Source of the DNA: a virus
Lineage: Duplodnaviria > Heunggongvirae > Uroviricota > Caudoviricetes
IMG/VR virus record: IMGVR_UViG_3300041407_000052
Span: 1 to 28,347 of that record
DNA length: 28,347 bases
Direction: 5' to 3' (one strand)
Both the position numbers and the translations under genes were made by a program. Under the pieces are notes generated by a model. That model was not told the origin of the DNA and did no database searches. It saw only the letters and a program-made list of their open reading frames with translations. Below are positions 2-16,806 of the stretch, one piece after another. The stretch's first letter is position 1. Every line of letters starts with the position of its first letter.

Positions 2-487
2 CAGGAGTTTTATTCTCTTGGTGAGGATGGTATTTATTTAAAGAAATGGAGACGAGGTTTTCCAAGAAGTGCCGTAGGGAATCGTGTAGGTAACACGCAC
101 CATTCTGGTTACAAGTATGTAAAGATAGGCGGTAAATTATATGGTGAGCATCAACTTGTTTGGCTTATGACTCATGGTGTTCTTCCCATCGGGGAACTTG
201 ATCACGAGGACACTGATAAGACAAATAACAATATAAGCAATTTGAGGTTGTCAACTCGACGACAAAACACAACCAATAGAAAAGGTTGGTCTAAATCTGG
301 TTTCAAAGGTGTTTACCCTAATAAACGTGGGTTACCGTGGAATGCAAGTATACGAATAAACGGTAGTAACAATAATCTTGGTAATTTTATACTTGTTGAA
401 GATGCAGCAAAAGCGTATGATATAGCGGCAATAAAAGCTAACGGGCTATTTGCCAAACTTAATTTTGAAAGGGAGAGTTACACATGA
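2..487 (+). CDS. HNH homing endonuclease with C-terminal AP2-like DNA-binding domain (5' truncated by window edge)
   Basis: The frame is open from position 2 (QEFYSLGEDG...EHQLVWLMTHG). HNH motif DHEDTDKTNNNISNLR is followed by AP2-type SGFKGVY...WNASIRING...LGNF...AAKAYD. Confidence 0.85.
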   Translation, partial: QEFYSLGEDGIYLKKWRRGFPRSAVGNRVGNTHHSGYKYVKIGGKLYGEHQLVWLMTHGVLPIGELDHEDTDKTNNNISNLRLSTRRQNTTNRKGWSKSGFKGVYPNKRGLPWNASIRINGSNNNLGNFILVEDAAKAYDIAAIKANGLFAKLNFERESYT

Positions 488-2289
488 ATCTTTTCGCAGC
501 ATTTCTGGCTGATGGATACAAGGGTGCGCACGGGATGATGTACGCTACTGGTACAGAAGTTGTTTCGTCAAACCTTACTCCACGCTCTGATCGGATCTAT
601 AAACGCACAGCTACCAAATATTACGACGGAAAACTCGTAGTAGTTGGTCACCAAGGTGCAGTCATGGAAATCGTTGAAAACTGGGATAGTTTCTTCAAGA
701 TGGACAAGGGTATTGCACTTGCGCGATTTAAACTTCTGTGCGATAGCTACTTCGGTTATGACCTGATTCAAGTAGATCATTTGTCGAGGTTGCATGACCT
801 TGGTTATCTACCTCTTGAGATTCGTGCTCTGGATGAAGGCACTAAGGTAAACATGGGAATTCCAGTCCTGACTATTCGTAACACTGTGAAACACGCTTTC
901 TGGCTGGTTAACTTCCTTGAGACTGTAATCAGCAACCTTACTTGGAAGCCAAGCACGGCTGCAACTATTGCTGCTGAATACCGTGCAATGTTGACCGACT
1001 ATGCAATCCGTACAGGTACTGCTCTTGAAGTAGTTAATATTCAAGCACACAGCTTTGCTGACCGTGGTATGTCTGGTCCTGAAGATGCAGCACGTTCTGG
1101 TTTCGGTCACGTTGGTAGTTTCTTGGGTAGTGATTCGCTGGGTACTGTGTTGTACGCACAACAGTATTACAAGGCTGGTAACTTTGTAGCTTGTTCTGTA
1201 CCTGCAACTGAGCACGCTGTAAGCACAAGTAACATTCTGCGAATTGAACAAGAGTTATATGACGGTACTTACAAATTCAAGAATGGAGAACAGATTGTAA
1301 TTCATGGCAAGATGTCGATGAATTGCGAAGACGAACGACTGATTGCTGAAATCATGTTCATGTACGAACTGATGCTCAAGTTCCCTGTTGGCATTCTGTC
1401 GTATGTAGCTGACAGCTTTGACTTCTACGGTTTGATTTCTCGTGGTCTTCCTTATCTGAAAGAAGTTATCCTTCGTCGTCAATCGAATGGTGTTACTCCC
1501 GGTCGATTGGTTATTCGTCCAGATTCTGGTGATCCTGTTGAAGTGATTTGTGGTGTAAAAGTTGTTAGTGTTCCACATACAACTGTTGAGATTCTTGAAG
1601 ACGCAGATGATGCTGTTGATTCAGTAAGTGACGTCGGTTATGAATTCACTAGAGATGATGATGGTGGTTCTGAATTTGAGTTCTTTGTACGATCAACTGA
1701 TGATGATATCATTCGGATTTCTGGTGAAACTTGTGGTAGTCGTAGTTATGGTGGTGCTTATATTAGCGGGTATAGTTCGGAAGTAGTTGATCTGACGGTT
1801 GAGCAGAAAGGTGCTGTTGAAGTGCTGATGGATATCTTTGGTTATACCGAGACTTCCACTGGTCACCACTTGATGAATGACCATATTGGTTTGATCTATG
1901 GTGACTCGATTACTACAAATCGTTGCAATACAATCCTTGAGCGCCTGTTTGACAAGGGTTATGCTTCAGGTAATGCAATGTTCGGTGTTGGTTCTTACAC
2001 TTACCAATGTGTAACACGTGATACGTTCGGTTTTGCAGTTAAGGCAACTTACACCGAAGTTAATGGTAAGGCGATTCCAATCTTCAAAGATCCTAAGACG
2101 GATAGTAAGAAGAAGAGTGCTAAAGGTCTGTTACACGTTGGTTTGGTTGATGGTGAGTATGTATTGACCGATAATGTCACTCGTGAGGTTGAACAGAGTG
2201 AATCCAACATGCTGAAGATTCGATTCTTGGATGGTAGTTTCTACAACCAAACATCCCTTGATGAGATTCGTGCAAAACTGATGGTGTAA
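484..2289 (+). CDS. nadV: Nicotinamide phosphoribosyltransferase (NAMPT/NadV) with extra insertions
   Basis: NAMPT motifs ADGYKGAH, HSFADRG, SVPATEHAV, VADSFD, IRPDSGDP, IYGDSIT, FGVGSYTY, RDTFGFAVKAT, KDPKTD..KKSAKG. Confidence 0.95.
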   Translation: MNLFAAFLADGYKGAHGMMYATGTEVVSSNLTPRSDRIYKRTATKYYDGKLVVVGHQGAVMEIVENWDSFFKMDKGIALARFKLLCDSYFGYDLIQVDHLSRLHDLGYLPLEIRALDEGTKVNMGIPVLTIRNTVKHAFWLVNFLETVISNLTWKPSTAATIAAEYRAMLTDYAIRTGTALEVVNIQAHSFADRGMSGPEDAARSGFGHVGSFLGSDSLGTVLYAQQYYKAGNFVACSVPATEHAVSTSNILRIEQELYDGTYKFKNGEQIVIHGKMSMNCEDERLIAEIMFMYELMLKFPVGILSYVADSFDFYGLISRGLPYLKEVILRRQSNGVTPGRLVIRPDSGDPVEVICGVKVVSVPHTTVEILEDADDAVDSVSDVGYEFTRDDDGGSEFEFFVRSTDDDIIRISGETCGSRSYGGAYISGYSSEVVDLTVEQKGAVEVLMDIFGYTETSTGHHLMNDHIGLIYGDSITTNRCNTILERLFDKGYASGNAMFGVGSYTYQCVTRDTFGFAVKATYTEVNGKAIPIFKDPKTDSKKKSAKGLLHVGLVDGEYVLTDNVTREVEQSESNMLKIRFLDGSFYNQTSLDEIRAKLMV

Positions 2290-2296
2290 CTGGATG

Positions 2297-2316
2297 GCCC
2301 GCTTCGGCGGGTTTTT
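2297..2316 (+). terminator. Rho-independent terminator after nadV
   Basis: Hairpin CCCGC-TTCG-GCGGG followed by TTTTT, starting 8 nt after the stop codon. Confidence 0.9.
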
Positions 2317-2345
2317 CTACGTCTGTAAATAAGTACGTTTGGTGG

Positions 2346-2373
2346 TTGACAGGCTTAAAAATTCTGGTAGAAT
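2346..2373 (+). promoter_or_regulatory. sigma70-type promoter, TTGACA-N16-TAGAAT
   Basis: TTGACA 2346-2351 and TAGAAT 2368-2373; RBS AGGAGA before ATG 2398. Confidence 0.85.
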
Positions 2374-2397
2374 AGTCGGACAAACAAGGAGATAAGT

Positions 2398-2868
2398 ATG
2401 AAAAACCAAATGACACTAGCTGTTGAACTCGCAATCGAGAAACACGAAGGACAGATGTATGGTAATCTTCCATACATGGCACACTTGATTGAAGTTGACA
2501 ACCTTGTGACCAAAGTCTACAAGAAAGTTAAATCTCCCGGTGAACCGTATTCAAAAGAACCGGGAGACGAGATGGATTGTCTTCGTGCTATCGCATTCTT
2601 GCATGATATCCTTGAAGACACAGACACCACAACATATGAACTTCTTGACGCCGGTATCTGTCAACAGGTGGTCGATGCTGTTGAAAAGATGTCGAAGGTG
2701 AAAGGTGAAAGTTACTCAGATTATATTGTTGAAGTTAAATCGAATGAACTTGCACGTAAAGTGAAACTGTGCGATACTGCTGCCAACTTGAGGAATAGCA
2801 TCAAAGAAGGCAACATCAAACGTATTAACAAATATAGTAAGCAGCTTCAACTTCTAGGTGGTTTCTAA
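2398..2868 (+). CDS. HD-domain phosphohydrolase, SpoT/Mesh1 (p)ppGpp hydrolase-like
   Basis: AIEKHEGQ.YG..PY..H...V, LHDILEDT and VKLCD..ANL match stand-alone RelA/SpoT HD hydrolases. Confidence 0.82.
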   Translation: MKNQMTLAVELAIEKHEGQMYGNLPYMAHLIEVDNLVTKVYKKVKSPGEPYSKEPGDEMDCLRAIAFLHDILEDTDTTTYELLDAGICQQVVDAVEKMSKVKGESYSDYIVEVKSNELARKVKLCDTAANLRNSIKEGNIKRINKYSKQLQLLGGF

Positions 2869-3030
2869 ATGAAGGTAACAAAAGATACAATTGGTGGGTG
2901 GATGTGGTATAATACAAATGTCAAAGAAGCTGTAGGACGAACACTTAGCGAGAAAGAAGTTAAAGATGTGATGAAGAAATACATTTCAGGCCAATCATGG
3001 CAAACAACAGTAATGGAGATGACTAAATGA
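2869..3030 (+). CDS. Hypothetical protein (53 aa, MKVTKDTIGG...)
   Basis: Translated by hand; fills the gap, abutting the upstream stop and overlapping the next ATG (ATGA). Confidence 0.7.
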   Translation: MKVTKDTIGGWMWYNTNVKEAVGRTLSEKEVKDVMKKYISGQSWQTTVMEMTK

Positions 3031-3197
3031 TTACCCAAAAAGAGATTCGTGAAATTGCACTGGCTGACCTGCTGCAAAGTCTGAAGTCTGCTCGTGTATC
3101 TGCTAAGCTCGCTGGGTTCACCAGTTGGGAAGTTGATGATGCGATTGGTGAACTGATTGACATTGCTGAGTTCCAATACGATCAAGAGCGTGACTGA
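3027..3197 (+). CDS. Hypothetical protein (56 aa, MITQKEIREIAL...)
   Basis: Translated by hand; ATGA overlap with the upstream gene and GGAG upstream. Confidence 0.7.
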   Translation: MITQKEIREIALADLLQSLKSARVSAKLAGFTSWEVDDAIGELIDIAEFQYDQERD

Positions 3198-3198
3198 T

Positions 3199-3468
3199 AT
3201 GAGTGAGATGGAGTACAACAAGGGTATATTGATTCCTACTCATATCGACACTGAACATTTTGGACAGGATGAGTACGAAACATACAGTGAAAACGGCTAC
3301 GTGGTTCTTGATGGTGAAATCTACACTGTTAAGTGGGAAGTTCAACGTGGTGAAATTGATCAGATAAACAACGTTCGTGTTTGTGATGAGACTGGTTACA
3401 TTTTCTTCGAGACTTATCACTACAACGGTGGTGCTCATTGGACTGAAGTTGTTGAGAGTAAATTATAA
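3199..3468 (+). CDS. Hypothetical acidic protein (MSEMEYNKG...)
   Basis: ORF track 3157..3468; ATG 3199 preferred because it follows the stop of the previous gene. Confidence 0.72.
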   Translation: MSEMEYNKGILIPTHIDTEHFGQDEYETYSENGYVVLDGEIYTVKWEVQRGEIDQINNVRVCDETGYIFFETYHYNGGAHWTEVVESKL

Positions 3469-3677
3469 TGTCAGGTGCTATCGTAAGTTGGCAGTCTAAG
3501 CTAGACGCCACAGTTGGAATACAACCTGTTGCACGCAGTCATATTGGTGGTGTACACTATGAAGATTACGAACTGCACGATGGGTATTGGCGTTACACGT
3601 GGACCAACTTCACGTTAGATGATCATCCTGAGTTCATTGAAGTGAATAAGATGGAGGTTGAAGATGTCGCTGCATAA
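3468..3677 (+). CDS. Hypothetical protein
   Basis: ORF track; TAATG coupling to the upstream gene. Confidence 0.62.
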   Translation: MSGAIVSWQSKLDATVGIQPVARSHIGGVHYEDYELHDGYWRYTWTNFTLDDHPEFIEVNKMEVEDVAA

Positions 3678-3879
3678 CGAAATCATGAATATTCCAGTGC
3701 AATACTCACGCGGTGAGTTCGGTAAAGAAGTTCATTACCTTCATTACTCTGAAGGTCACCGTGACGCTCGTCATTCTGCTGCTGAATTGAGCTTGAAGTA
3801 TGATCGTTTGATTGAAGAGCTTGGCGACCGCTTTGGTAAAGGTACTGTTGATTTATTTAAAAGGAAGTGTGGATTATGA
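3664..3879 (+). CDS. Hypothetical protein, paralogue of the next gene
   Basis: ORF track 3658..3879; ATG 3664 has a GGAGG RBS; similar to 3876..4079. Confidence 0.68.
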   Translation: MSLHNEIMNIPVQYSRGEFGKEVHYLHYSEGHRDARHSAAELSLKYDRLIEELGDRFGKGTVDLFKRKCGL

Positions 3880-4079
3880 AATTTTCGGAACGGATTGATA
3901 ACATTCCAGCCAATTGCTTTACATATGGTGATTACCATGAAGGGTTCTATCAGTGTCGTGACGAAGCAGCAAGTATTGCTGACAAGGCTGATGAACTAAT
4001 TGTTAAGTTGTTTGATGCACTTTGTAATCGTCACGCTGACGATCTTGTTGATGAATTGAAAGAGGAGTATGGTCTGTGA
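3876..4079 (+). CDS. Hypothetical protein, paralogue of the previous gene
   Basis: ATGA overlap; shares I.NIP, Y.EG, R..AA, K.D.LI and VD..K...GL with 3664..3879. Confidence 0.68.
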   Translation: MKFSERIDNIPANCFTYGDYHEGFYQCRDEAASIADKADELIVKLFDALCNRHADDLVDELKEEYGL

Positions 4080-4402
4080 GTGTTATCCCAAATGCAGAAG
4101 CACGCAGTAATGTAATTTATATTGCCGGTCCAATGACTGGGTTGGAAGAGTTCAATTTCCCAGCGTTTAACTCTGCTGCTGACAAGTTTAAATCCGATGG
4201 TTGGGAAGTTAAGAACCCAGCGGAACATGGTGTTGTTGAAGGTGCGACTTGGGAAGATTACATGGCATTCGATCTAACTCAACTAGGTCAATGTGGTGCT
4301 GTCTACATGTTGAAAGGTTGGGAGATGTCACGCGGTGCATGTTTGGAGCAACTGATTGCAATGCGGTTGGGTATGAAGATTATTTATGAGGACCGTGTAT
4401 GA
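4076..4402 (+). CDS. DUF4406 family, nucleoside 2-deoxyribosyltransferase-like protein
   Basis: IYIAGPMTG...FN.PAF...A...G..V.NPAE...W..YM..DL..L..C..VYML.GWE.S.GA.LE pattern. Confidence 0.85.
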   Translation: MSVIPNAEARSNVIYIAGPMTGLEEFNFPAFNSAADKFKSDGWEVKNPAEHGVVEGATWEDYMAFDLTQLGQCGAVYMLKGWEMSRGACLEQLIAMRLGMKIIYEDRV

Positions 4403-4563
4403 CACTTGACCAAGCAGTAGAATATGTAATTGATGCAGCAAAAGCACTTGGTTACAGTCATCATGAATTGCAATTGTTGGCCCCTGATATACGTGAAATG
4501 ATTTATTCGCTTCCTTCTACAGAGAAATCCGACATTGACAACCTGATTGAAGAGAAGTTGTAA
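4399..4563 (+). CDS. Hypothetical protein (54 aa, MTLDQAVEYVID...)
   Basis: Translated by hand; ATGA overlap and GAGG RBS. Confidence 0.7.
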   Translation: MTLDQAVEYVIDAAKALGYSHHELQLLAPDIREMIYSLPSTEKSDIDNLIEEKL

Positions 4564-4564
4564 T

Positions 4565-4855
4565 ATGGCTGAAAAGAAAGTAAAACCGTTGGTAACCGTC
4601 ATCGTTGAATATAAAGAGTTCACTGATTACGAGTTCATTCCACCGGGTAGTTTTTACATTCGACCAGCAAGCGGTGATTACATTTTCTTGAAGACATCTG
4701 ATCGAATGGCTGCCCAATCACATATCGACAAAGAATACGGGAAAGGTAAATACACAGTAGTTCCAGCAAAGATTCAGAAGACAGTTAGTCGATTAGAATC
4801 TGGTGGACTTAGTTGTACTGGAACTGCAACTCGTAAAGGACAACAAAAACGATGA
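4565..4855 (+). CDS. Hypothetical basic protein (MAEKKVKP...)
   Basis: ORF track 4547..4855; ATG 4565 lies just after the upstream stop. Confidence 0.75.
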   Translation: MAEKKVKPLVTVIVEYKEFTDYEFIPPGSFYIRPASGDYIFLKTSDRMAAQSHIDKEYGKGKYTVVPAKIQKTVSRLESGGLSCTGTATRKGQQKR

Positions 4856-5049
4856 TTAGCACGATAAAAAGAATCCAATATGGTGATACTGGATCTGGTG
4901 ATTATGCTGAAGTCACAATTGATTCGATTGAGAATCATGCTATTCTTTTGGGCAATGATAGTATCTCAAGTCGTAAAAAGGTTATATACGCAAGTGAAGT
5001 AGATTCACTTATTGAAGCATTGCAACACCTGAAATATAATTATCTTTGA
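4852..5049 (+). CDS. Hypothetical protein
   Basis: ORF track; ATGA overlap. Confidence 0.65.
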   Translation: MISTIKRIQYGDTGSGDYAEVTIDSIENHAILLGNDSISSRKKVIYASEVDSLIEALQHLKYNYL

Positions 5050-5060
5050 GGAGAAAACAA

Positions 5061-5516
5061 ATGAGCATTAATTTGGAAAACATCAAACCTGAATCAGACT
5101 TCGGGCCAGTGGACACTTCCGAAATTCAAGAAGTATCTCTGGTCAACTTCATGGCGGCCATCGGGTACGAGCCAACTTACAAACCAACCGTTGGTGGTGA
5201 GCGCCTTACTGGTTTCTTCCAACCAAAGTTCTTTCGTATCGGTCAGGCTCGTTTGAGCGTTAACACTGCAATCCGACTTCACAACGAATACGCTGAAGAG
5301 TCTTTTGCAGAACTTATTTCGTTTACTCCGAATCAGGAGTTCCGTGACTTCGTTTCTGACTACGATAATATCGATAAGATCACATCGTTGTTTGCAGGAA
5401 CTTGCAAAATTGTTAACTTCGTCAGTGCAACTTACTCTAAGAAGAAAGGTTTTGTTGTTCACAACCACAATGTAAAGTTTATGACTAAACGTGATCAACG
5501 TCGTTACGGTTTCTGA
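5061..5516 (+). CDS. Hypothetical protein (MSINLENIK...)
   Basis: ORF track 5046..5516; strong RBS GAGGAG before ATG 5061. Confidence 0.78.
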   Translation: MSINLENIKPESDFGPVDTSEIQEVSLVNFMAAIGYEPTYKPTVGGERLTGFFQPKFFRIGQARLSVNTAIRLHNEYAEESFAELISFTPNQEFRDFVSDYDNIDKITSLFAGTCKIVNFVSATYSKKKGFVVHNHNVKFMTKRDQRRYGF

Positions 5517-5518
5517 CC

Positions 5519-5608
5519 ATGGTTGAATTCCTATTCGCAGTTACGGCACTTTCATTTTGTGTATTGATGTTGGCGATTTCATATGGAATCATTAGGGAAT
5601 CACGCTAA
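5519..5608 (+). CDS. Small membrane peptide (29 aa, MVEFLFAVTALSFCVLMLAISYGIIRESR)
   Basis: Translated by hand; single hydrophobic helix; TAATG coupling to the dCMP deaminase gene. Confidence 0.5.
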   Translation: MVEFLFAVTALSFCVLMLAISYGIIRESR

Positions 5609-6027
5609 TGTTACAACACAAGATGATCAAACCTTACATGGAAACAGCTCGGGCATTTTCTCAGCTGTCTCATGCCAAACGTAAAAGGGTTGGTGCAATT
5701 GCTGTAACGCCACAAGATGTTGTAATCTATTCATGGAACGGAAGACCTTCAGGTGATGATAATTGTTGTGAGTTAACACCTGAACTAACGCACCCTGAAG
5801 TTTTACATGCTGAAGCAAATATTGTATCCAAGGCCGCTCGTGAAGGTATCTCATTGAAAGATGCAGATATCTATGTGACGCTCAGTCCTTGTCTACCTTG
5901 CTCTTTACAGTTGTTCCAAGCCGGTGTAAAGACAGTGACATACGATGAGGAGTACAGATTAACAGATGGTATTGATTTCCTAAAGCGTAAGCAGGTTTCA
6001 GTAATCAAGTATGAGGAGAGTGTATGA
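5608..6027 (+). CDS. dCMP deaminase (cytidine deaminase superfamily)
   Basis: Zinc motifs HAEAN and SPCLPCS; N-terminal S.AKRKRVGA and WNG.PSG. Confidence 0.92.
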   Translation: MLQHKMIKPYMETARAFSQLSHAKRKRVGAIAVTPQDVVIYSWNGRPSGDDNCCELTPELTHPEVLHAEANIVSKAAREGISLKDADIYVTLSPCLPCSLQLFQAGVKTVTYDEEYRLTDGIDFLKRKQVSVIKYEESV

Positions 6028-11421: not shown

Positions 11422-11608
11422 ATTGGATGACACCTGTACGGTCTTTAGTCTGTATCAGGATGACGTATTCATGGGCACTCAGACTTGGATTGGTCAGCAC
11501 TTGCTCAACATTGGTAAACACCACGGTATCGACTTGAGCAAGTGTGAGAGTGAAAGTCACATGCTTTCAATTCTTGAATGTTATATTGACATTGAGATTG
11601 TTGACTAA
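11408..11608 (+). CDS. Hypothetical protein (MYKIKLDD...)
   Basis: ORF track 11393..11608; ATG 11408 has a GAGG RBS. Confidence 0.68.
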   Translation: MYKIKLDDTCTVFSLYQDDVFMGTQTWIGQHLLNIGKHHGIDLSKCESESHMLSILECYIDIEIVD

Positions 11609-11796
11609 TGGACACTGTAGATAAATATATCAGTCGTAAGTTTTGGCTTGCTGTTGTGTTCCAAACAGTATTCACGATCATGTTGTGCTACGGTAAACTT
11701 CCGGTTTCTGCATTTGAGAACCTGACGTACATGTTGCTTGGTGGTTACTTTATTAGTAATGTCACTCAGAAGATATTCGTTAAGGAAATTGTCTAA
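11608..11796 (+). CDS. Small 2-TM membrane protein, possibly holin-like
   Basis: SRKFW followed by two hydrophobic helices and a charged C-terminus; no endolysin nearby. Confidence 0.6.
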   Translation: MDTVDKYISRKFWLAVVFQTVFTIMLCYGKLPVSAFENLTYMLLGGYFISNVTQKIFVKEIV

Positions 11797-12257
11797 TGGT
11801 ATTCTGGAAGACTAAGAAGATCAATCTTGGTGATCAGTCGGTTACCGAACTTACTATTCTCGAATGGAAGCGATTCTTCAGCATTAAGTTGTTCCATTTC
11901 CATAAAACAGATGGTGATCAAGATCGATTCCACACTCACGCCTTCAACGCCGTGAGCATTCTGCTTTCTGGTGATTACATGGAAGAGATTGTTGACCAAG
12001 GTCAGATTGTTCCACTGAAACGCAGTCGTAAACGCTTCCTGTTCATTCCGAAAGATAGTTTTCATCGTATTACCAAGAGTACAGGTTGTCGTACATTGCT
12101 GATCACTGGTCCATGGGGTAAAGAGTTCAAAGAACTTCGCAAGATAAGCGGAACACTTGAACATCCACAAGGAGCAGGTGATTGGCAAGTAGTTGTTTGT
12201 GGTGCACAACGAGTGGACCAACGTTCCGAAGGTATAATTAGACTGGAGAGTATTTAA
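11796..12257 (+). CDS. Cupin-fold protein
   Basis: Cupin metal motif FHTHAF.....LSG.Y.EE ... FHRI ... TLLITGP. Confidence 0.7.
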   Translation: MVFWKTKKINLGDQSVTELTILEWKRFFSIKLFHFHKTDGDQDRFHTHAFNAVSILLSGDYMEEIVDQGQIVPLKRSRKRFLFIPKDSFHRITKSTGCRTLLITGPWGKEFKELRKISGTLEHPQGAGDWQVVVCGAQRVDQRSEGIIRLESI

Positions 12258-12532
12258 TGACGAAAGATGAGTTTGTAAAAACGTTCCTTGAAGGTGCGCA
12301 ACACTCACCAGAAGGTGCCACAATCAGTAACCTTCTGGGTATTGTATACGACTTACGTAAAACAGTTCATTCGAAGAACGATCAAATTGGATTTATGGAT
12401 GATACTGCTCGTGATTGTGGTTGGACACTGAACTGTCGATCATGTGGTGAAAGTTATCAGCCAGATTGTGAACTAAGTGAGATGTATGGTAGTGAAAACT
12501 ATTGCGGGCGTAATGAGTTCTGCACACCATGA
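12257..12532 (+). CDS. Hypothetical protein with CxxC
   Basis: ORF track; TAATG coupling; CRSCG and a second Cys cluster. Confidence 0.7.
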   Translation: MTKDEFVKTFLEGAQHSPEGATISNLLGIVYDLRKTVHSKNDQIGFMDDTARDCGWTLNCRSCGESYQPDCELSEMYGSENYCGRNEFCTP

Positions 12533-12819
12533 AAATCATTGGAATGTTCTACAATAACAAACATGACATGATCGAAGCCTTTCGTAAACATTCTCAAAAT
12601 GTCCAAAGCTTGGCACGTTGTTATAGTGTGGTAACTGTAAACCCTTCAGAAATGAAAATCATAGTAGATGACTGTAAATGGTTGTATTACACATTTGAGG
12701 ATGACCGTCGAATTAATGACATTTCTGGAATTCAGTTTGATGCAATCTTTTCAGAGGTAATTGACCCAAAGGCTAAATGGTACATTATGTCTAGATTCCG
12801 ACCGGGACTGAACAAATGA
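12529..12819 (+). CDS. Hypothetical protein
   Basis: ORF track; ATGA overlap. Confidence 0.7.
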   Translation: MKIIGMFYNNKHDMIEAFRKHSQNVQSLARCYSVVTVNPSEMKIIVDDCKWLYYTFEDDRRINDISGIQFDAIFSEVIDPKAKWYIMSRFRPGLNK

Positions 12820-13295
12820 CAATTACACACGACAGTCTCTGTCTTCAGGCTGAGAAGTTCCTAAAGTCAAATGGTTTCGGTGTTGTATTCCATGATAAGT
12901 TTCGAGCAGTAACCAACAGTGGTGAAATGCCTGATTGCCTTGGTTTCAGAAGTGGTGTATCATGTCTGATCGAATGCAAGACCAGTCGAGCTGACTTCTT
13001 AGCTGATAGGAAGAAGAAGTTCCGTGTAAATCCATCAATTGGTATGGGTGATTGGCGTTTTATGCTCACACCAAAGGGATTAATCAAGGTTGATGAACTT
13101 CCAACAGGTTGGGGCTTGCTTGAGACAACTGGTAAGCGTATAATGAAAGTTCATGGCTTCCCACCAAACACAGCATGGAATGATAAACCATTCCATGCTA
13201 ACAAGCAGGCTGAGAGTGACTATATGTATTCTGCACTACGTCGAATGGTTATCCGTGGTCACTTCAATGAAATATATGAGGGTATTCCAGCATGA
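12816..13295 (+). CDS. PD-(D/E)XK nuclease-like protein (MmcB-like)
   Basis: PDCLGF...LIECKTSRADFLAD.KK resembles the E.K.S..DF..D.K motif of the MmcB family. Confidence 0.62.
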   Translation: MTITHDSLCLQAEKFLKSNGFGVVFHDKFRAVTNSGEMPDCLGFRSGVSCLIECKTSRADFLADRKKKFRVNPSIGMGDWRFMLTPKGLIKVDELPTGWGLLETTGKRIMKVHGFPPNTAWNDKPFHANKQAESDYMYSALRRMVIRGHFNEIYEGIPA

Positions 13296-13510
13296 AACAA
13301 TACAAGATTGTTAAACATTACACCGCACCAGACGATTACATCTATCGTATTTACAAACGTGAGTTTCTGTTCTTCTGGTCGTGGGAAACATCGTATTCAA
13401 CGCTTGAAAGATGTGAAAGTGTTATCGCTGGTTGGAAACAGGATGAGATTGACAAACGTGAATATGTAAAAGCGACCCCTAAACCAACTACTGTTGGTTA
13501 TTATGGTTAA
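13292..13510 (+). CDS. Hypothetical protein
   Basis: ORF track; ATGA overlap and GAGGG RBS. Confidence 0.68.
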   Translation: MKQYKIVKHYTAPDDYIYRIYKREFLFFWSWETSYSTLERCESVIAGWKQDEIDKREYVKATPKPTTVGYYG

Positions 13511-13784
13511 GCGAGTACAGTTGGTGAACAAACACGATGTTGGAATTCATTACGCTCTGTTCACTTGGCGTAAATGTGAATTCTGCAAACAAGACTTCAA
13601 GAAAGAGAGGGGTTATAAATGGCCTGTCTTCCGTTATGGCTATCAGTACTCGTGTGGTGATTGTTCTGCATCTGTGAGTCATTGCAACGATCAAATTGAT
13701 CATCGTCGTGCTTCTGAAGCTGCTCGAATAACAGGCAATCCTCCACCTGCTCCACCAATGCGTACATATGGAGTTAGACGATGA
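13503..13784 (+). CDS. Hypothetical zinc-binding protein
   Basis: CEFC and CGDC pairs; ORF track 13494..13784. Confidence 0.68.
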   Translation: MVKRVQLVNKHDVGIHYALFTWRKCEFCKQDFKKERGYKWPVFRYGYQYSCGDCSASVSHCNDQIDHRRASEAARITGNPPPAPPMRTYGVRR

Positions 13785-14587
13785 ACATCAGAACAATAAA
13801 TATAGATGGTCAGGTTATTCGGGTAGCAATTCGAGAAGGTTCGTCTGTACCGGTGCTATTCTTTAATGGGATTGGTGCAAGTTTGGAACTAGTACTTCCG
13901 TTCATCGACAGTCTACCACCAGAGTTGTCAGTGATTGCATTTGATGTACCGGGAATTGGTGGGAGTAGTTTACCAACTACAGGTGCGTACACAATGCAGG
14001 GTCTTGCACAGACTGTTAGTAAGATGCTGGACGTACTTCGTGTTCAATATGTGGATGCACTCGGTTTAAGTTGGGGTGGATTCCTTGCTCAGCAATTTGC
14101 ATACTCGTTCCCAACACGCTGTCGTAAGTTGATTCTTGCAGCTACATCACATGGTGTACTCTCTGTTCCACCTAGTTTCAAAGTGCTTGGTTTGATGTCT
14201 AGTCCTAAACGCTACACTGATTTGGAGTTTGCAGCACGCATTACACCAGACATTTATGGTGGTAGCTTCAGACATGACAAACAGTTAGGACTGTCTCACG
14301 CACGTAAGATGATTGCAGATAAGACACCTACATTTGAGCAAGGTTACAAGTATCAAATGGGTGCGTTGTTCGGTTGGAGCAGTTTAACTTGGTTGCATAC
14401 GATTAGACAACCAACATTGGTACTGTGTGGTAATGATGACCCAATCATTCCGCTGGTTAACATGCATGTGTTGTCCAACTTGATTCCTAACAGTGTACAA
14501 CATGTATTTAATGACGGTCATCTGTTTCTACTGACTGACATCGAACGCTGTACACCCATTATCCACTCTTTCTTGGAGTCTGTATGA
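13781..14587 (+). CDS. phaZ: Intracellular mcl-poly(3-hydroxyalkanoate) depolymerase, PhaZ type (alpha/beta hydrolase)
   Basis: Collinear with Pseudomonas PhaZ as recalled: FNGIGASLELV.PF, VIAFDVPGIGGS, lipase box GLSWGG, AQQFA...P.RC.KLILAAT, SP.RY, IYGG.FR, WLH.I.QPTLVL.G.DDP.IPL.NM, DGHLFL. Confidence 0.92.
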   Translation: MNIRTINIDGQVIRVAIREGSSVPVLFFNGIGASLELVLPFIDSLPPELSVIAFDVPGIGGSSLPTTGAYTMQGLAQTVSKMLDVLRVQYVDALGLSWGGFLAQQFAYSFPTRCRKLILAATSHGVLSVPPSFKVLGLMSSPKRYTDLEFAARITPDIYGGSFRHDKQLGLSHARKMIADKTPTFEQGYKYQMGALFGWSSLTWLHTIRQPTLVLCGNDDPIIPLVNMHVLSNLIPNSVQHVFNDGHLFLLTDIERCTPIIHSFLESV

Positions 14588-14751
14588 ATATCCGTGACCT
14601 GATTGATAATCTTGAAGACATGGTTGTACAATGTGGTGAAAACCAAGTAGTAGAAATCTGGTGTCCAGAAGGTGAAGACTGGTTTCCTATCACTGGGTTT
14701 ACATACGGTGGTGGTGAGAACATTGTTCGTATTTACAATGATGAGGCTTGA
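14584..14751 (+). CDS. Hypothetical protein (55 aa, MNIRDLIDNL...)
   Basis: Translated by hand; ATGA overlap and GGAG RBS. Confidence 0.7.
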   Translation: MNIRDLIDNLEDMVVQCGENQVVEIWCPEGEDWFPITGFTYGGGENIVRIYNDEA

Positions 14752-14769
14752 TGAATGAACAATGTAAGA

Positions 14770-14919
14770 ATGGAAACGATCACTCTTCCCACTTGGTACA
14801 CTCAAGAACAATTGGACCAAGCAGTTGTTAACGCTAAGCTGAAAGCATATGAACTTGGCTACGATTCTGGATTCGAAGAAGGGTATACAGAGGGTAATCA
14901 AAATTGTCAACACCGATAA
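14770..14919 (+). CDS. Hypothetical protein (49 aa, METITLPTWY...GYDSGFEEGYTEG)
   Basis: Translated by hand; contains G-x-x-x-G repeats common in small phage helical proteins. Confidence 0.58.
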   Translation: METITLPTWYTQEQLDQAVVNAKLKAYELGYDSGFEEGYTEGNQNCQHR

Positions 14920-15019
14920 TATCAGTCGAAGCGCTAACACTTGCTTTGTCTCATGTGCGTAACTATCAGGACAGAATGTTTCTACAATTCTTGATTGCTG
15001 TTGAAAGGAGAAAACAATA

Positions 15020-15193
15020 ATGGGTGACCGTGAACCATGGGAACACGAACTGACAAGGGTTATTCATATTGCACGACTAGCTGAGTTACCCGAAGTAGTA
15101 TCTGCAATCCAGAATTCAATCTTTCAAATACATCTGTTGAAAGGTAAAGCAAATGACCTTGCTCAAATTAAACAATTGCTGGGGAAGAGATAA
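15020..15193 (+). CDS. Hypothetical protein (57 aa, MGDREPWEHE...)
   Basis: Translated by hand; strong AGGAG RBS. Confidence 0.72.
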   Translation: MGDREPWEHELTRVIHIARLAELPEVVSAIQNSIFQIHLLKGKANDLAQIKQLLGKR

Positions 15194-15345
15194 TGAACAA
15201 ATTATACCAAGTCGTAGGCGAAAGCGATGATGGTTTCTCACTAGATGGTCAGACATTTGATAACTTCACAGATGCTGACATGGAAGCTCATTTGTTGGGT
15301 CTTGAATTCCCAAACAACGAATACTGGGTTGAGAGAATCAAATGA
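15193..15345 (+). CDS. Hypothetical protein (50 aa, MNKLYQVVGE...)
   Basis: Translated by hand; TAATG and ATGA couplings. Confidence 0.7.
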   Translation: MNKLYQVVGESDDGFSLDGQTFDNFTDADMEAHLLGLEFPNNEYWVERIK

Positions 15346-15590
15346 GCGACAAACAATGTCCTTGCTGTCGTCGTAAACATGTAGGTCCAATCAAGACATG
15401 GAGACGCAACACACAGTACATAGACGATGTTCTAAACTGTATGACAACTTGCGTGCACTGCATTGCAGAAGACGATATCAACTACGCATATCAGTGGGCA
15501 GAATATTACAACGGGACCGGTGCTGGTGGTTACTCACACTACACCGACTTCCTCATCAACAGACGTTGGCCTTGGAGAGAATTACGATGA
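15342..15590 (+). CDS. Hypothetical zinc-binding protein
   Basis: CPCC and CVHC pairs; ORF track. Confidence 0.68.
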   Translation: MSDKQCPCCRRKHVGPIKTWRRNTQYIDDVLNCMTTCVHCIAEDDINYAYQWAEYYNGTGAGGYSHYTDFLINRRWPWRELR

Positions 15591-15751
15591 CAATCGATGA
15601 GTTGAAAGAACAAGCCCGCCTACTCAGACAAATTGTAGTCGTGACGGTTAACAACTATGCTCACACTCGCTTCACCATCGAAAGTCGTGAAGCTTATCTG
15701 AATGCAAGTTGGAAGCTGATCAAGGCATGGGAAAGGAAGAATGGATTATGA
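15587..15751 (+). CDS. Hypothetical protein (MTIDELKEQ...)
   Basis: 3' part of track ORF 15398..15751; ATGA overlap and GGAG RBS. Confidence 0.62.
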   Translation: MTIDELKEQARLLRQIVVVTVNNYAHTRFTIESREAYLNASWKLIKAWERKNGL

Positions 15752-16008
15752 CATGGATTGCTGTTGAAGACAGACTACCACCGATAGACAGTTGGGCGTT
15801 AGTTGTTCAAGATTACAACGTCGGAGATTGGTTTGACCGTCAACGTCGTCCACTAAGGCAAGTCTTTGCAGCAAAGTTGACTGGTATTGATGAACTAGGT
15901 TGGTCAGAATGGGCAAAGACTGGAAACAGATATGATGCATTGTATTTGGTAACCCACTGGCAACCATATCCAACAGTAGAGCAACCAGAGGAGAACAATG
16001 ATGAGTGA
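15748..16008 (+). CDS. DUF551-like protein
   Basis: WIAVEDRLP at the N-terminus and VTHWQPYP at the C-terminus are the DUF551 hallmark. Confidence 0.78.
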   Translation: MTWIAVEDRLPPIDSWALVVQDYNVGDWFDRQRRPLRQVFAAKLTGIDELGWSEWAKTGNRYDALYLVTHWQPYPTVEQPEENNDE

Positions 16009-16093
16009 ACCATGTGATTGTGACTGGTGTGGTAAATGTCGCGACCAACAAAGTAGACAGCGTGAGCTAGAAGAAAGGAGTGATTACGAATGA
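15998..16093 (+). CDS. Small Cys-rich protein (31 aa, MMSEPCDCDWCGKCRDQ...)
   Basis: Translated by hand; GAGGAG RBS; ATGA overlap with the next gene. Confidence 0.6.
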   Translation: MMSEPCDCDWCGKCRDQQSRQRELEERSDYE

Positions 16094-16293
16094 ACATTGA
16101 TCTAGGTTGGTTGGGTAAGGTTGTAATGTGTCAATGGGAAGAGGAAGAACACTTCGTTCCTAATGGTGAGGGTTTCATCATTGTCTCTGACGGATATACA
16201 GACTCAGGTATTCGCGTACATGGTGTACTAGATAATCGACCACATATAACTTACCCTTATTGCTGGCAGAATGCCATTTTGATTAAACTGTAA
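16090..16293 (+). CDS. Hypothetical protein
   Basis: ORF track; AGGAG RBS. Confidence 0.68.
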   Translation: MNIDLGWLGKVVMCQWEEEEHFVPNGEGFIIVSDGYTDSGIRVHGVLDNRPHITYPYCWQNAILIKL

Positions 16294-16317
16294 ATTAGAT
16301 ACAATTAGGAGGTGGTA

Positions 16318-16806
16318 ATGCAATGGCATGACCCAAGGTATTGGTATTTCATTACCGAGAAAGATATGGGTGAAACAATGACTCTACATCCTCGTCAACC
16401 TTGGGGAATGTCAGACGATGAACCGAAAACTAAAAGAATATGCGTAGCACCAACAGCTGCACATTGCATGTCAGCAATTGACGTAGGTTCCGATTGTAGG
16501 TCAGGTGAAACAGGTAAGGTGTATGTCTATCGCACACGTAGACAAGTAAAGGCACGTGTTCCATATAGTGTATATGACTCACATATCACAAAAGAACATT
16601 GGTTGATGTCAAGTACTCGCTTTACATTGGTTGATGTTCTTGAACTAAAAACAAATTTGACATGGGCAAGATTTAAATGGGATGAAGATGCACAACGTAG
16701 AGATTTAAAAGCAATCAAGGCATGGTGTACACGTAGGCGACCACAATTAGCGGTTAAAGAACATGCTAATCAACTATGGAAAGCAGATAAAAGGAAAGCA
16801 GCATGA
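16318..16806 (+). CDS. Hypothetical protein
   Basis: ORF track 16312..16806; AGGAGG RBS. Confidence 0.78.
   Translation: MQWHDPRYWYFITEKDMGETMTLHPRQPWGMSDDEPKTKRICVAPTAAHCMSAIDVGSDCRSGETGKVYVYRTRRQVKARVPYSVYDSHITKEHWLMSSTRFTLVDVLELKTNLTWARFKWDEDAQRRDLKAIKAWCTRRRPQLAVKEHANQLWKADKRKAA

Follow-up and report, generated by a model that had tools for sequence, protein, structure and literature searches.

Described Systems and the Phage Locus

The fluorescent pseudomonads store carbon and energy mainly as polyhydroxyalkanoate (PHA), which accumulates in them under nutrient-limited growth. Pseudomonas putida is a producer of medium-chain-length PHA (mcl-PHA) (PMC12504323, PMC7174725), and it runs PHA synthesis by PhaC and degradation by the depolymerase PhaZ concurrently (PMC2959000). 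The P. putida enzyme, reported to be highly substrate-specific, has the catalytic triad Ser102/Asp221/His248 in its PhaZKT form; its FNGIG loop, its lid (residues 133–192) and a hydrophobic hinge were all found to be indispensable, the activity being abolished by deletion of the loop or by mutation of Asn35 (PMC12504323). For the predator Bdellovibrio, depolymerisation of prey mcl-PHA was shown to improve fitness (PMC7174725). A gene of the PhaZ family, phaZ (protein P0001), was analysed here in a DNA stretch of 28,347 nucleotides (the window), positions 1 to 28,347 of the IMG/VR record IMGVR_UViG_3300041407_000052, a virus of the Caudoviricetes. On balance, its product would serve to mobilise host mcl-PHA during infection.

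The host enzymes (PhaZKT of P. putida KT2440/KT2442, P. oleovorans P26495 and P. aeruginosa PhaZ) and the phage protein are collinear, with 51–56% identity, and have in common a triad set in GxSWG, DDP and DGH motifs, the FNGIG loop, a helical lid and the lack of a signal peptide. The phage protein differs from them in its viral location, its placement in a sister clade, a lid insertion, the missing C-terminal tail, the substitutions A101F, N34S and G131P, and its score on the TIGR02240 model (315 vs 541–621 bits). Related phage copies, found on IMG/VR and Logan contigs (L002–L046), resemble the window protein in clade, purifying selection, absence of a phaC neighbour and phage-adapted guanine-plus-cytosine (GC) content, but they are only 53–71% identical to it, save for L007/P0002 (98–99%), and lie in unrelated contexts and insertion sites. 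ORF269 of the Ralstonia jumbo phages RP12 and RP31, annotated as hypothetical or as esterase/lipase, is likewise phage-encoded, with 291 bits on TIGR02240 and 44.6% full-length identity, but falls outside the Pseudomonas-plus-phage clade. PhaZBd of Bdellovibrio bacteriovorus is comparable to the role proposed here in that a parasite or predator degrades the PHA store of its victim; unlike the phage protein, it is a non-viral, extracellular-type enzyme of a cellular predator, and its architecture is not homologous.

Family Identity and Predicted Structure

The phage protein passed TIGR02240, the NCBIfam equivalog model for PhaZ, scoring 314.9 bits where 250.6 are required (E = 4.4e-94, model positions 4–264 of 276). 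All other NCBIfam models stayed far under their own cut-offs, and in Pfam only the generic alpha/beta-hydrolase fold was recognised. On the TIGR02240 scale, host enzymes score 541–621, the siphophage copy L015 401, RP12 291 and distant representatives 248–306 bits. In a 50%-identity clustering with 1.84 billion representatives, the best match was P0122 (56% identity), the same cluster representative as for canonical PhaZ, which scores 564 bits and thus lies within the range of the host enzymes. Alignment to P. aeruginosa PhaZ was collinear over residues 4–265 (56% identity, E = 4e-105) and placed Ser97, Asp220 and His247 on Ser102, Asp221 and His248 of the canonical enzyme, respectively. These three residues are invariant in 77 aligned copies from phages and hosts, as are N29, G30 and G32 of the FNGIG loop (77/77). 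The hinge reads YKYQMG in the phage protein and YYWQLF in canonical enzymes; phages and hosts alike keep Y189 and Q192 in every copy.

The AlphaFold2 model, built with 94 homologues, comprises a hydrolase core and a helical cap at residues 133–196 (predicted local distance difference test (pLDDT) 93.8, predicted template modelling score 0.92), and its confidence falls only near residues 181–190 (pLDDT 63), the site of a four-residue insertion. Among the AlphaFold models of reviewed (Swiss-Prot) proteins, the best match was P. oleovorans PhaZ P26495 (template modelling score 0.93, root-mean-square deviation 1.9 Å, E = 4e-38), with other families at about E = 1e-19 and 17–25% identity. Matches in the PDB were generic esterases with 28–29% identity; mcl PhaZ is without a solved structure. 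The original prediction had named the product a full-length mcl-PHA depolymerase with its triad in GLSWG, GNDDP and DGHLF. The family call was borne out by the equivalog model, by the structural match and by the closest homologues, which are PhaZ enzymes rather than generic esterases, and the 268-residue frame and all three motifs were found where they had been read. Full-length, by comparison, holds for the collinear part only, as the protein is without the disordered C-terminal tail (about 17 residues) of P. putida PhaZ and without about five N-terminal residues, and has four extra residues in the lid. Judged by these features, the gene product is almost certainly an active, cytoplasmic PhaZ-type serine esterase.

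Phylogeny, Selection and Composition

Maximum-likelihood trees were rooted with an outgroup, and the same topology was obtained in two careful trees. The 26 sampled canonical PhaZ of Pseudomonadaceae formed one clade (support 99/94), whose sister clade (support 100/97) consisted of 22 phage copies and three bacterial second paralogues; both clades were jointly split from the 40–50% representatives, two distant bacterial sequences and RP12 (100/99). A quick first tree had put the two distant bacterial sequences in the canonical clade on a long branch, a placement that the outgroup-rooted trees did not reproduce. Because the phage copies form the sister clade of canonical PhaZ, phage phaZ is an old and diversified phage-associated lineage and no recent capture from host pha loci. 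The RP12 gene, since it branches outside the Pseudomonas-plus-phage clade, represents a separate acquisition.

Phage phaZ is under purifying selection and is selectively maintained, with ratios of nonsynonymous to synonymous substitution rates (dN/dS) of 0.04 between the window gene and its 96%-identical relative L007, and of 0.07–0.11 within other phage lineages. The GC content of phaZ tracks that of each phage genome, from 43% in the window to 63% in the high-GC group, host phaZ being at 62–66%. On the bacterial side, exactly one TIGR02240 protein of 541–621 bits was present in 63 of the 151 sampled Pseudomonadaceae genomes, and any match at E ≤ 1e-40 in 5 of 400 sampled Gammaproteobacteria. 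In the three Pseudomonas genomes checked, host phaZ lies between two class II PhaC genes (phaC1/phaC2), a location that the phage gene does not share and that characterises the host locus rather than the enzyme itself.

An exact-peptide-pattern scan of bacterial species genomes returned only three loci, and wider genome sampling was added. The bacterial second paralogues within the phage clade belong to P. fluorescens PS833 (L047), P. lini (L048) and a megaplasmid of P. serbica (L049). The GC content of the gene is 8–9 points under that of its surroundings in L047 and L048. A prophage origin was considered and set aside, the neighbourhood of L047 being metabolic (aldehyde dehydrogenase, MBL, SDR, DUF3597, FAD-oxidase and MFS genes), not phage; transfer from phage to bacterium is the simplest reading of these copies. 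The L047 genome also holds a divergent PhaC-like gene (539 bits, below the cut-off) about 17 kb off on the same contig.

Viral Context and Recurrence in Other Phages

The record, 104,392 bp long and 100% complete according to CheckV, has the window as its first 28 kb and encodes terminase, portal, prohead protease, DNA polymerase, primase-helicase, helicase, two RNA ligases and eight tRNAs; no integrase was found in the 104-kb record. For the large terminase, identity is 77.7% to the P. putida phage phiPMW and 65–69% to two other Pseudomonas phages, the ligase agrees, and the ligase, a gp86 homologue and a NinI phosphatase are syntenic with phiPMW. The carrier is a phiPMW-like, probably virulent Pseudomonas phage, and the phage setting proposed from the sequence alone was confirmed by the terminase, portal, polymerase, tRNAs and terminase identity just given, together with the negative integrase result. 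The phage phiPMW lacks phaZ, and the window region from 11.4 to 17.5 kb, which includes phaZ, is without a counterpart in the compared 19-kb syntenic stretch of that phage; because synteny breaks over this region, phaZ is assigned to a variable accessory block. The gene is thus a homologue of a host metabolic gene in a bona fide viral genome with viral genes on both sides, which is the genomic setting of an auxiliary metabolic gene (AMG). Nearly all of the DNA is present in one rhizosphere metagenome, which may be its source.

In protein searches, a 98%-identical copy was found first, followed by copies with 60–73% identity on phage-sized contigs and then by named Pseudomonas PhaZ at 55–57%. 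As judged from the contig contexts, the phage copies occur in at least five unrelated genome settings. These are a 91-kb contig with NAPRTase and UvrD helicase, which has little else in common with the window; a 106-kb contig with terminase, PhoH, KilA-N and an MvaT DNA-binding domain; jumbo contigs of 222–284 kb, in which phaZ adjoins arrays of Kelch-repeat genes; about 19 siphophage contigs (GC 52%), with phaZ between the tail and head modules; and a group with 59% GC, in which the neighbours are those usual in siphophages of P. fluorescens and P. syringae. Four records of 48–49 kb are complete, with direct terminal repeats and 100% CheckV completeness, and one of the four has an integrase. 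An independent 103.8-kb contig (L007) carries the same gene at the same location as the window. A PhaC-sized neighbour was found in none of 45 related phage-context loci, and for most carrier phages the nearest isolated relatives are Pseudomonas phages. A megablast search of positions 12000–16500 against 50,697 isolated-phage records gave no match.

Several further observations were made on these contigs. The IMG sample 3300015262 alone has three different PhaZ phages, namely the 103.8-kb near-twin L007, the 228.6-kb jumbo L009 and the siphophage fragment L032, which suggests that the trait is common in the community of that sample. The copy in L032 (2118–2900) has an internal stop codon and is the only visibly decayed one among 40 IMG/VR loci, and that in L046 ends at the contig end. 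In the jumbo contigs L006 (8888–16804), L009 and L011, phaZ abuts tandem arrays of at least six paralogous Kelch/beta-propeller genes on the opposite strand. The 106-kb contig L002 encodes a protein with the DNA-binding domain of MvaT (Pseudomonas H-NS-like) and a 451-residue GDSL lipase/esterase adjoining terminase (11498–11881 and 13802–15157).

Proposed Function and Alternative Explanations

Expressed by the phage, PhaZ would attack the mcl-PHA granules of the host and release (R)-3-hydroxyalkanoic acids, which the acyl-CoA synthetase and beta-oxidation of the host would turn into acetyl-CoA, reducing power and ATP for phage replication. Since PhaC and PhaZ act concurrently in P. putida, an extra depolymerase would tip the balance to release. 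The benefit would be greatest in carbon-rich, nutrient-limited cells, for example in the rhizosphere. A host that makes mcl-PHA is suggested by the closest isolates, which infect P. putida and relatives, and a PL7 alginate lyase is encoded by the same phage. The original prediction had suggested that the gene may act as an AMG, may be of use in starved cells and may free space in the cytoplasm. That mcl-PHA is the substrate, when the gene would be expressed and how the phage would profit are what we infer from the sequence, and mobilisation of host mcl-PHA is held to be the probable function, with moderate confidence.

Several observations weigh against this function. The window phaZ lies outside the clade of the characterised Pseudomonas enzymes, in its sister clade, so that an equal substrate specificity is an extrapolation. 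Compared with the canonical consensus, the lid is 43% identical and the core 62%, and lid insertions vary in length across the phage clade; the lid is critical for activity and is thought to shape substrate specificity in PhaZ. Only three columns consistently separate the phage from the canonical clade, A101F four residues past the nucleophile, N34S two past the FNGIG loop and G131P at the lid entrance, and the first two sit near the active site. The protein does not have the disordered tail with which the host enzyme ends, the phage genome encodes no PhaC and no phasin, and the bacterial second paralogues are all outside pha loci. Among the isolated-phage records searched with tblastn (again 50,697), a full-length homologue was found only in Ralstonia RP12/RP31, other matches being unrelated hydrolases or resistance cassettes with 25–31% identity. 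Ralstonia, the host of RP12, stores polyhydroxybutyrate, not mcl-PHA.

Much of this would also suit an enzyme of the same fold and chemistry with a shifted ester substrate, such as 3-hydroxyalkanoate oligomers or dimers (hydroxyalkanoyloxyalkanoate (HAA)/rhamnolipid precursors), acyl-homoserine lactones, lipids or short-chain PHA. The phage clade is sister to the canonical enzymes and not nested inside them, its diverged lid carries insertions of variable length, and clade-wide changes lie near the nucleophile and the FNGIG loop. The RP12 homologue is labelled in RefSeq only as esterase/lipase, and L047 has aldehyde dehydrogenase, SDR, FAD-oxidase and MFS genes as neighbours instead of a pha cluster. 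Nevertheless, PhaZ came first by a wide margin in every sequence and structure comparison, just three columns separate both clades consistently, most carriers have Pseudomonas phages as their closest isolates, and P. putida PhaZ was reported to be highly substrate-specific (PMC12504323). A shifted substrate is considered rather unlikely, but it is the main rival to the proposed function and a serious one.

A true PHA depolymerase could also bring a benefit other than energy, by clearing granules for space or lysis, by releasing granule-bound proteins, or, in temperate carriers, as a lysogenic-conversion moron that alters carbon storage in the lysogen. The arrangement in about 19 siphophage contigs, where phaZ is a moron between the tail and head modules, and the integrase of one carrier genome are in line with such a role, and the concurrent action of PhaC and PhaZ in P. 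putida means that extra PhaZ would shift the steady state (PMC2959000). In the window phage, however, no integrase was found and phaZ is grouped with early metabolic genes (NAMPT, deaminase and ligase), and the sequence holds nothing that separates such benefits from energy supply; this explanation was judged to be improbable. Finally, host DNA that was taken for viral through misassembly or misbinning, or a passenger gene in decay, might be suspected from the host fragments that IMG/VR contigs can include and from the internal stop codon of L032, but it is extremely improbable, and host contamination was rejected as effectively refuted, in view of the ATGA coupling to phage ORFs at both ends, the GC content of 43% against 62–66% in host phaZ, the recurrence of the gene at this location in an independent contig of 103.8 kb (dN/dS 0.04), the lack of phaC in the genome, and the related copies in complete genomes bounded by terminal repeats.

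Mobilisation of the host reserve can be placed in a broader account, according to which a virus-specific PhaZ lineage, sister to all Pseudomonadaceae PhaZ, would have circulated for long among Pseudomonas phages of at least five unrelated types (myophages of about 100 kb, jumbo phages, and temperate and non-temperate siphophages), would sometimes have returned to bacteria, on chromosomes and a megaplasmid, and would let phages liquidate the PHA reserve. The arguments for and against this account as a whole appear evenly balanced.

Gene Arrangement and Surroundings

The positions of phaZ, its functional elements and its neighbours are collected in Table 1. The upstream open reading frame (ORF) gave only a sub-threshold, weak match to the restriction-alleviation protein Lar in the family search (E = 0.006), and the downstream ORF gave none. 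ATGA couplings on both sides of phaZ had been noted in the original prediction; they are real, each overlap having been read in the sequence. A sigma-70 scan around phaZ returned 25 sites, compared with 27 expected in shuffled sequence, and no promoter is claimed. A search for RNA runs that contain the region or the gene found none.

Table 1. Positions of phaZ, its functional elements and other genes in the 28,347-nucleotide window (aa, amino acids; CDS, coding sequence).
Feature	Positions	Strand	Remarks
PhaZ-like alpha/beta-hydrolase CDS (P0001)	13781..14587	+	ATG to TGA, 268 aa
GGAG ribosome-binding motif	13770..13773	+	Ends 7 nt 5' of the phaZ ATG; direct sequence reading
FNGIG loop, residues 28–32	13862..13876	+	Counterpart of P. 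putida PhaZ loop 34–38
Nucleophile Ser97 codon, GLSWG residues 95–99	14069..14071	+	Invariant in phage and canonical copies
Helical lid/cap, residues ~128–196, 4-residue insertion at ~181–184	14162..14368	+	AlphaFold2 helices 133–196
Catalytic Asp220 codon, GNDDP residues 217–221	14438..14440	+	Aligned with Asp221 of the canonical enzyme
Catalytic His247 codon, DGHLF residues 245–249	14519..14521	+	Aligned with His248 of the canonical enzyme
Upstream ORF, 96 aa, Cys-rich (CxxC ... CxxC)	13494..13784	+	TGA at 13782–13784 overlaps the phaZ ATG (ATGA)
Downstream ORF, 55 aa	14584..14751	+	ATG at 14584 overlaps the phaZ TGA at 14585–14587 (ATGA)
NAMPT	484..2289	+	
HD phosphohydrolase	2398..2868	+	
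DUF4406	4076..4402	+	
DUF7390	5046..5516	+	
dCMP/cytidine deaminase	5608..6027	+	
PL7 alginate lyase, 206 aa	8433..9053	+	Stand-alone; PF08787, E = 6e-29; without PHROG match
ORF of 174 aa	10503..11027	+	Matches a DNA-primase PHROG at positions 148–338 of 435 only (middle and C-terminal part)

The same-strand neighbours in the phaZ block comprise NAMPT, HD phosphohydrolase, dCMP deaminase, ligase and PL7 alginate lyase, those from NAMPT to the deaminase lying within positions 484–6027, in a series of nucleotide and NAD genes upstream of phaZ. The alginate lyase is flanked by a SLOG/cpYpsA-like gene on one side and the NinI phosphatase on the other, with no fusion to a tail protein, and fits an alginate-producing, Pseudomonas-type host. 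A full primase-helicase is encoded elsewhere in the same genome, at about 55.3–57.2 kb.

Novelty and Significance

In a literature search, no paper on a phage-encoded PHA depolymerase was found. The AMGs listed in a paper on the virome of a PHA reactor were phaC, fadJ and other synthesis genes, phaZ not being among them, and phaZ was not mentioned in a paper on AMGs of P. syringae phages. Automatic pipelines already label some of the phage homologues as poly(3-hydroxyalkanoate) depolymerase. The enzyme family is known, but its viral sister lineage is distinct, and the biological role proposed here is an undescribed one. PhaZ is being engineered for the recycling of bioplastics (PMC12504323), and the phage clade supplies dozens of natural variants of its lid. 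The proposed function is directly testable in the non-pathogenic P. putida KT2440, for which phaZ and phaC mutants exist.

If the proposal is true, phaZ would be, as far as the literature search shows, the first described phage gene family that mobilises a bacterial carbon-storage polymer, and the productivity of phages in soil and rhizosphere would be tied to the carbon storage of their hosts. Under nutrient limitation, when PHA builds up, phages are also expected to lack energy for their replication. Storage-polymer mobilisation would then constitute a new class of AMG, which could help to account for phage replication in rhizosphere hosts that grow slowly.

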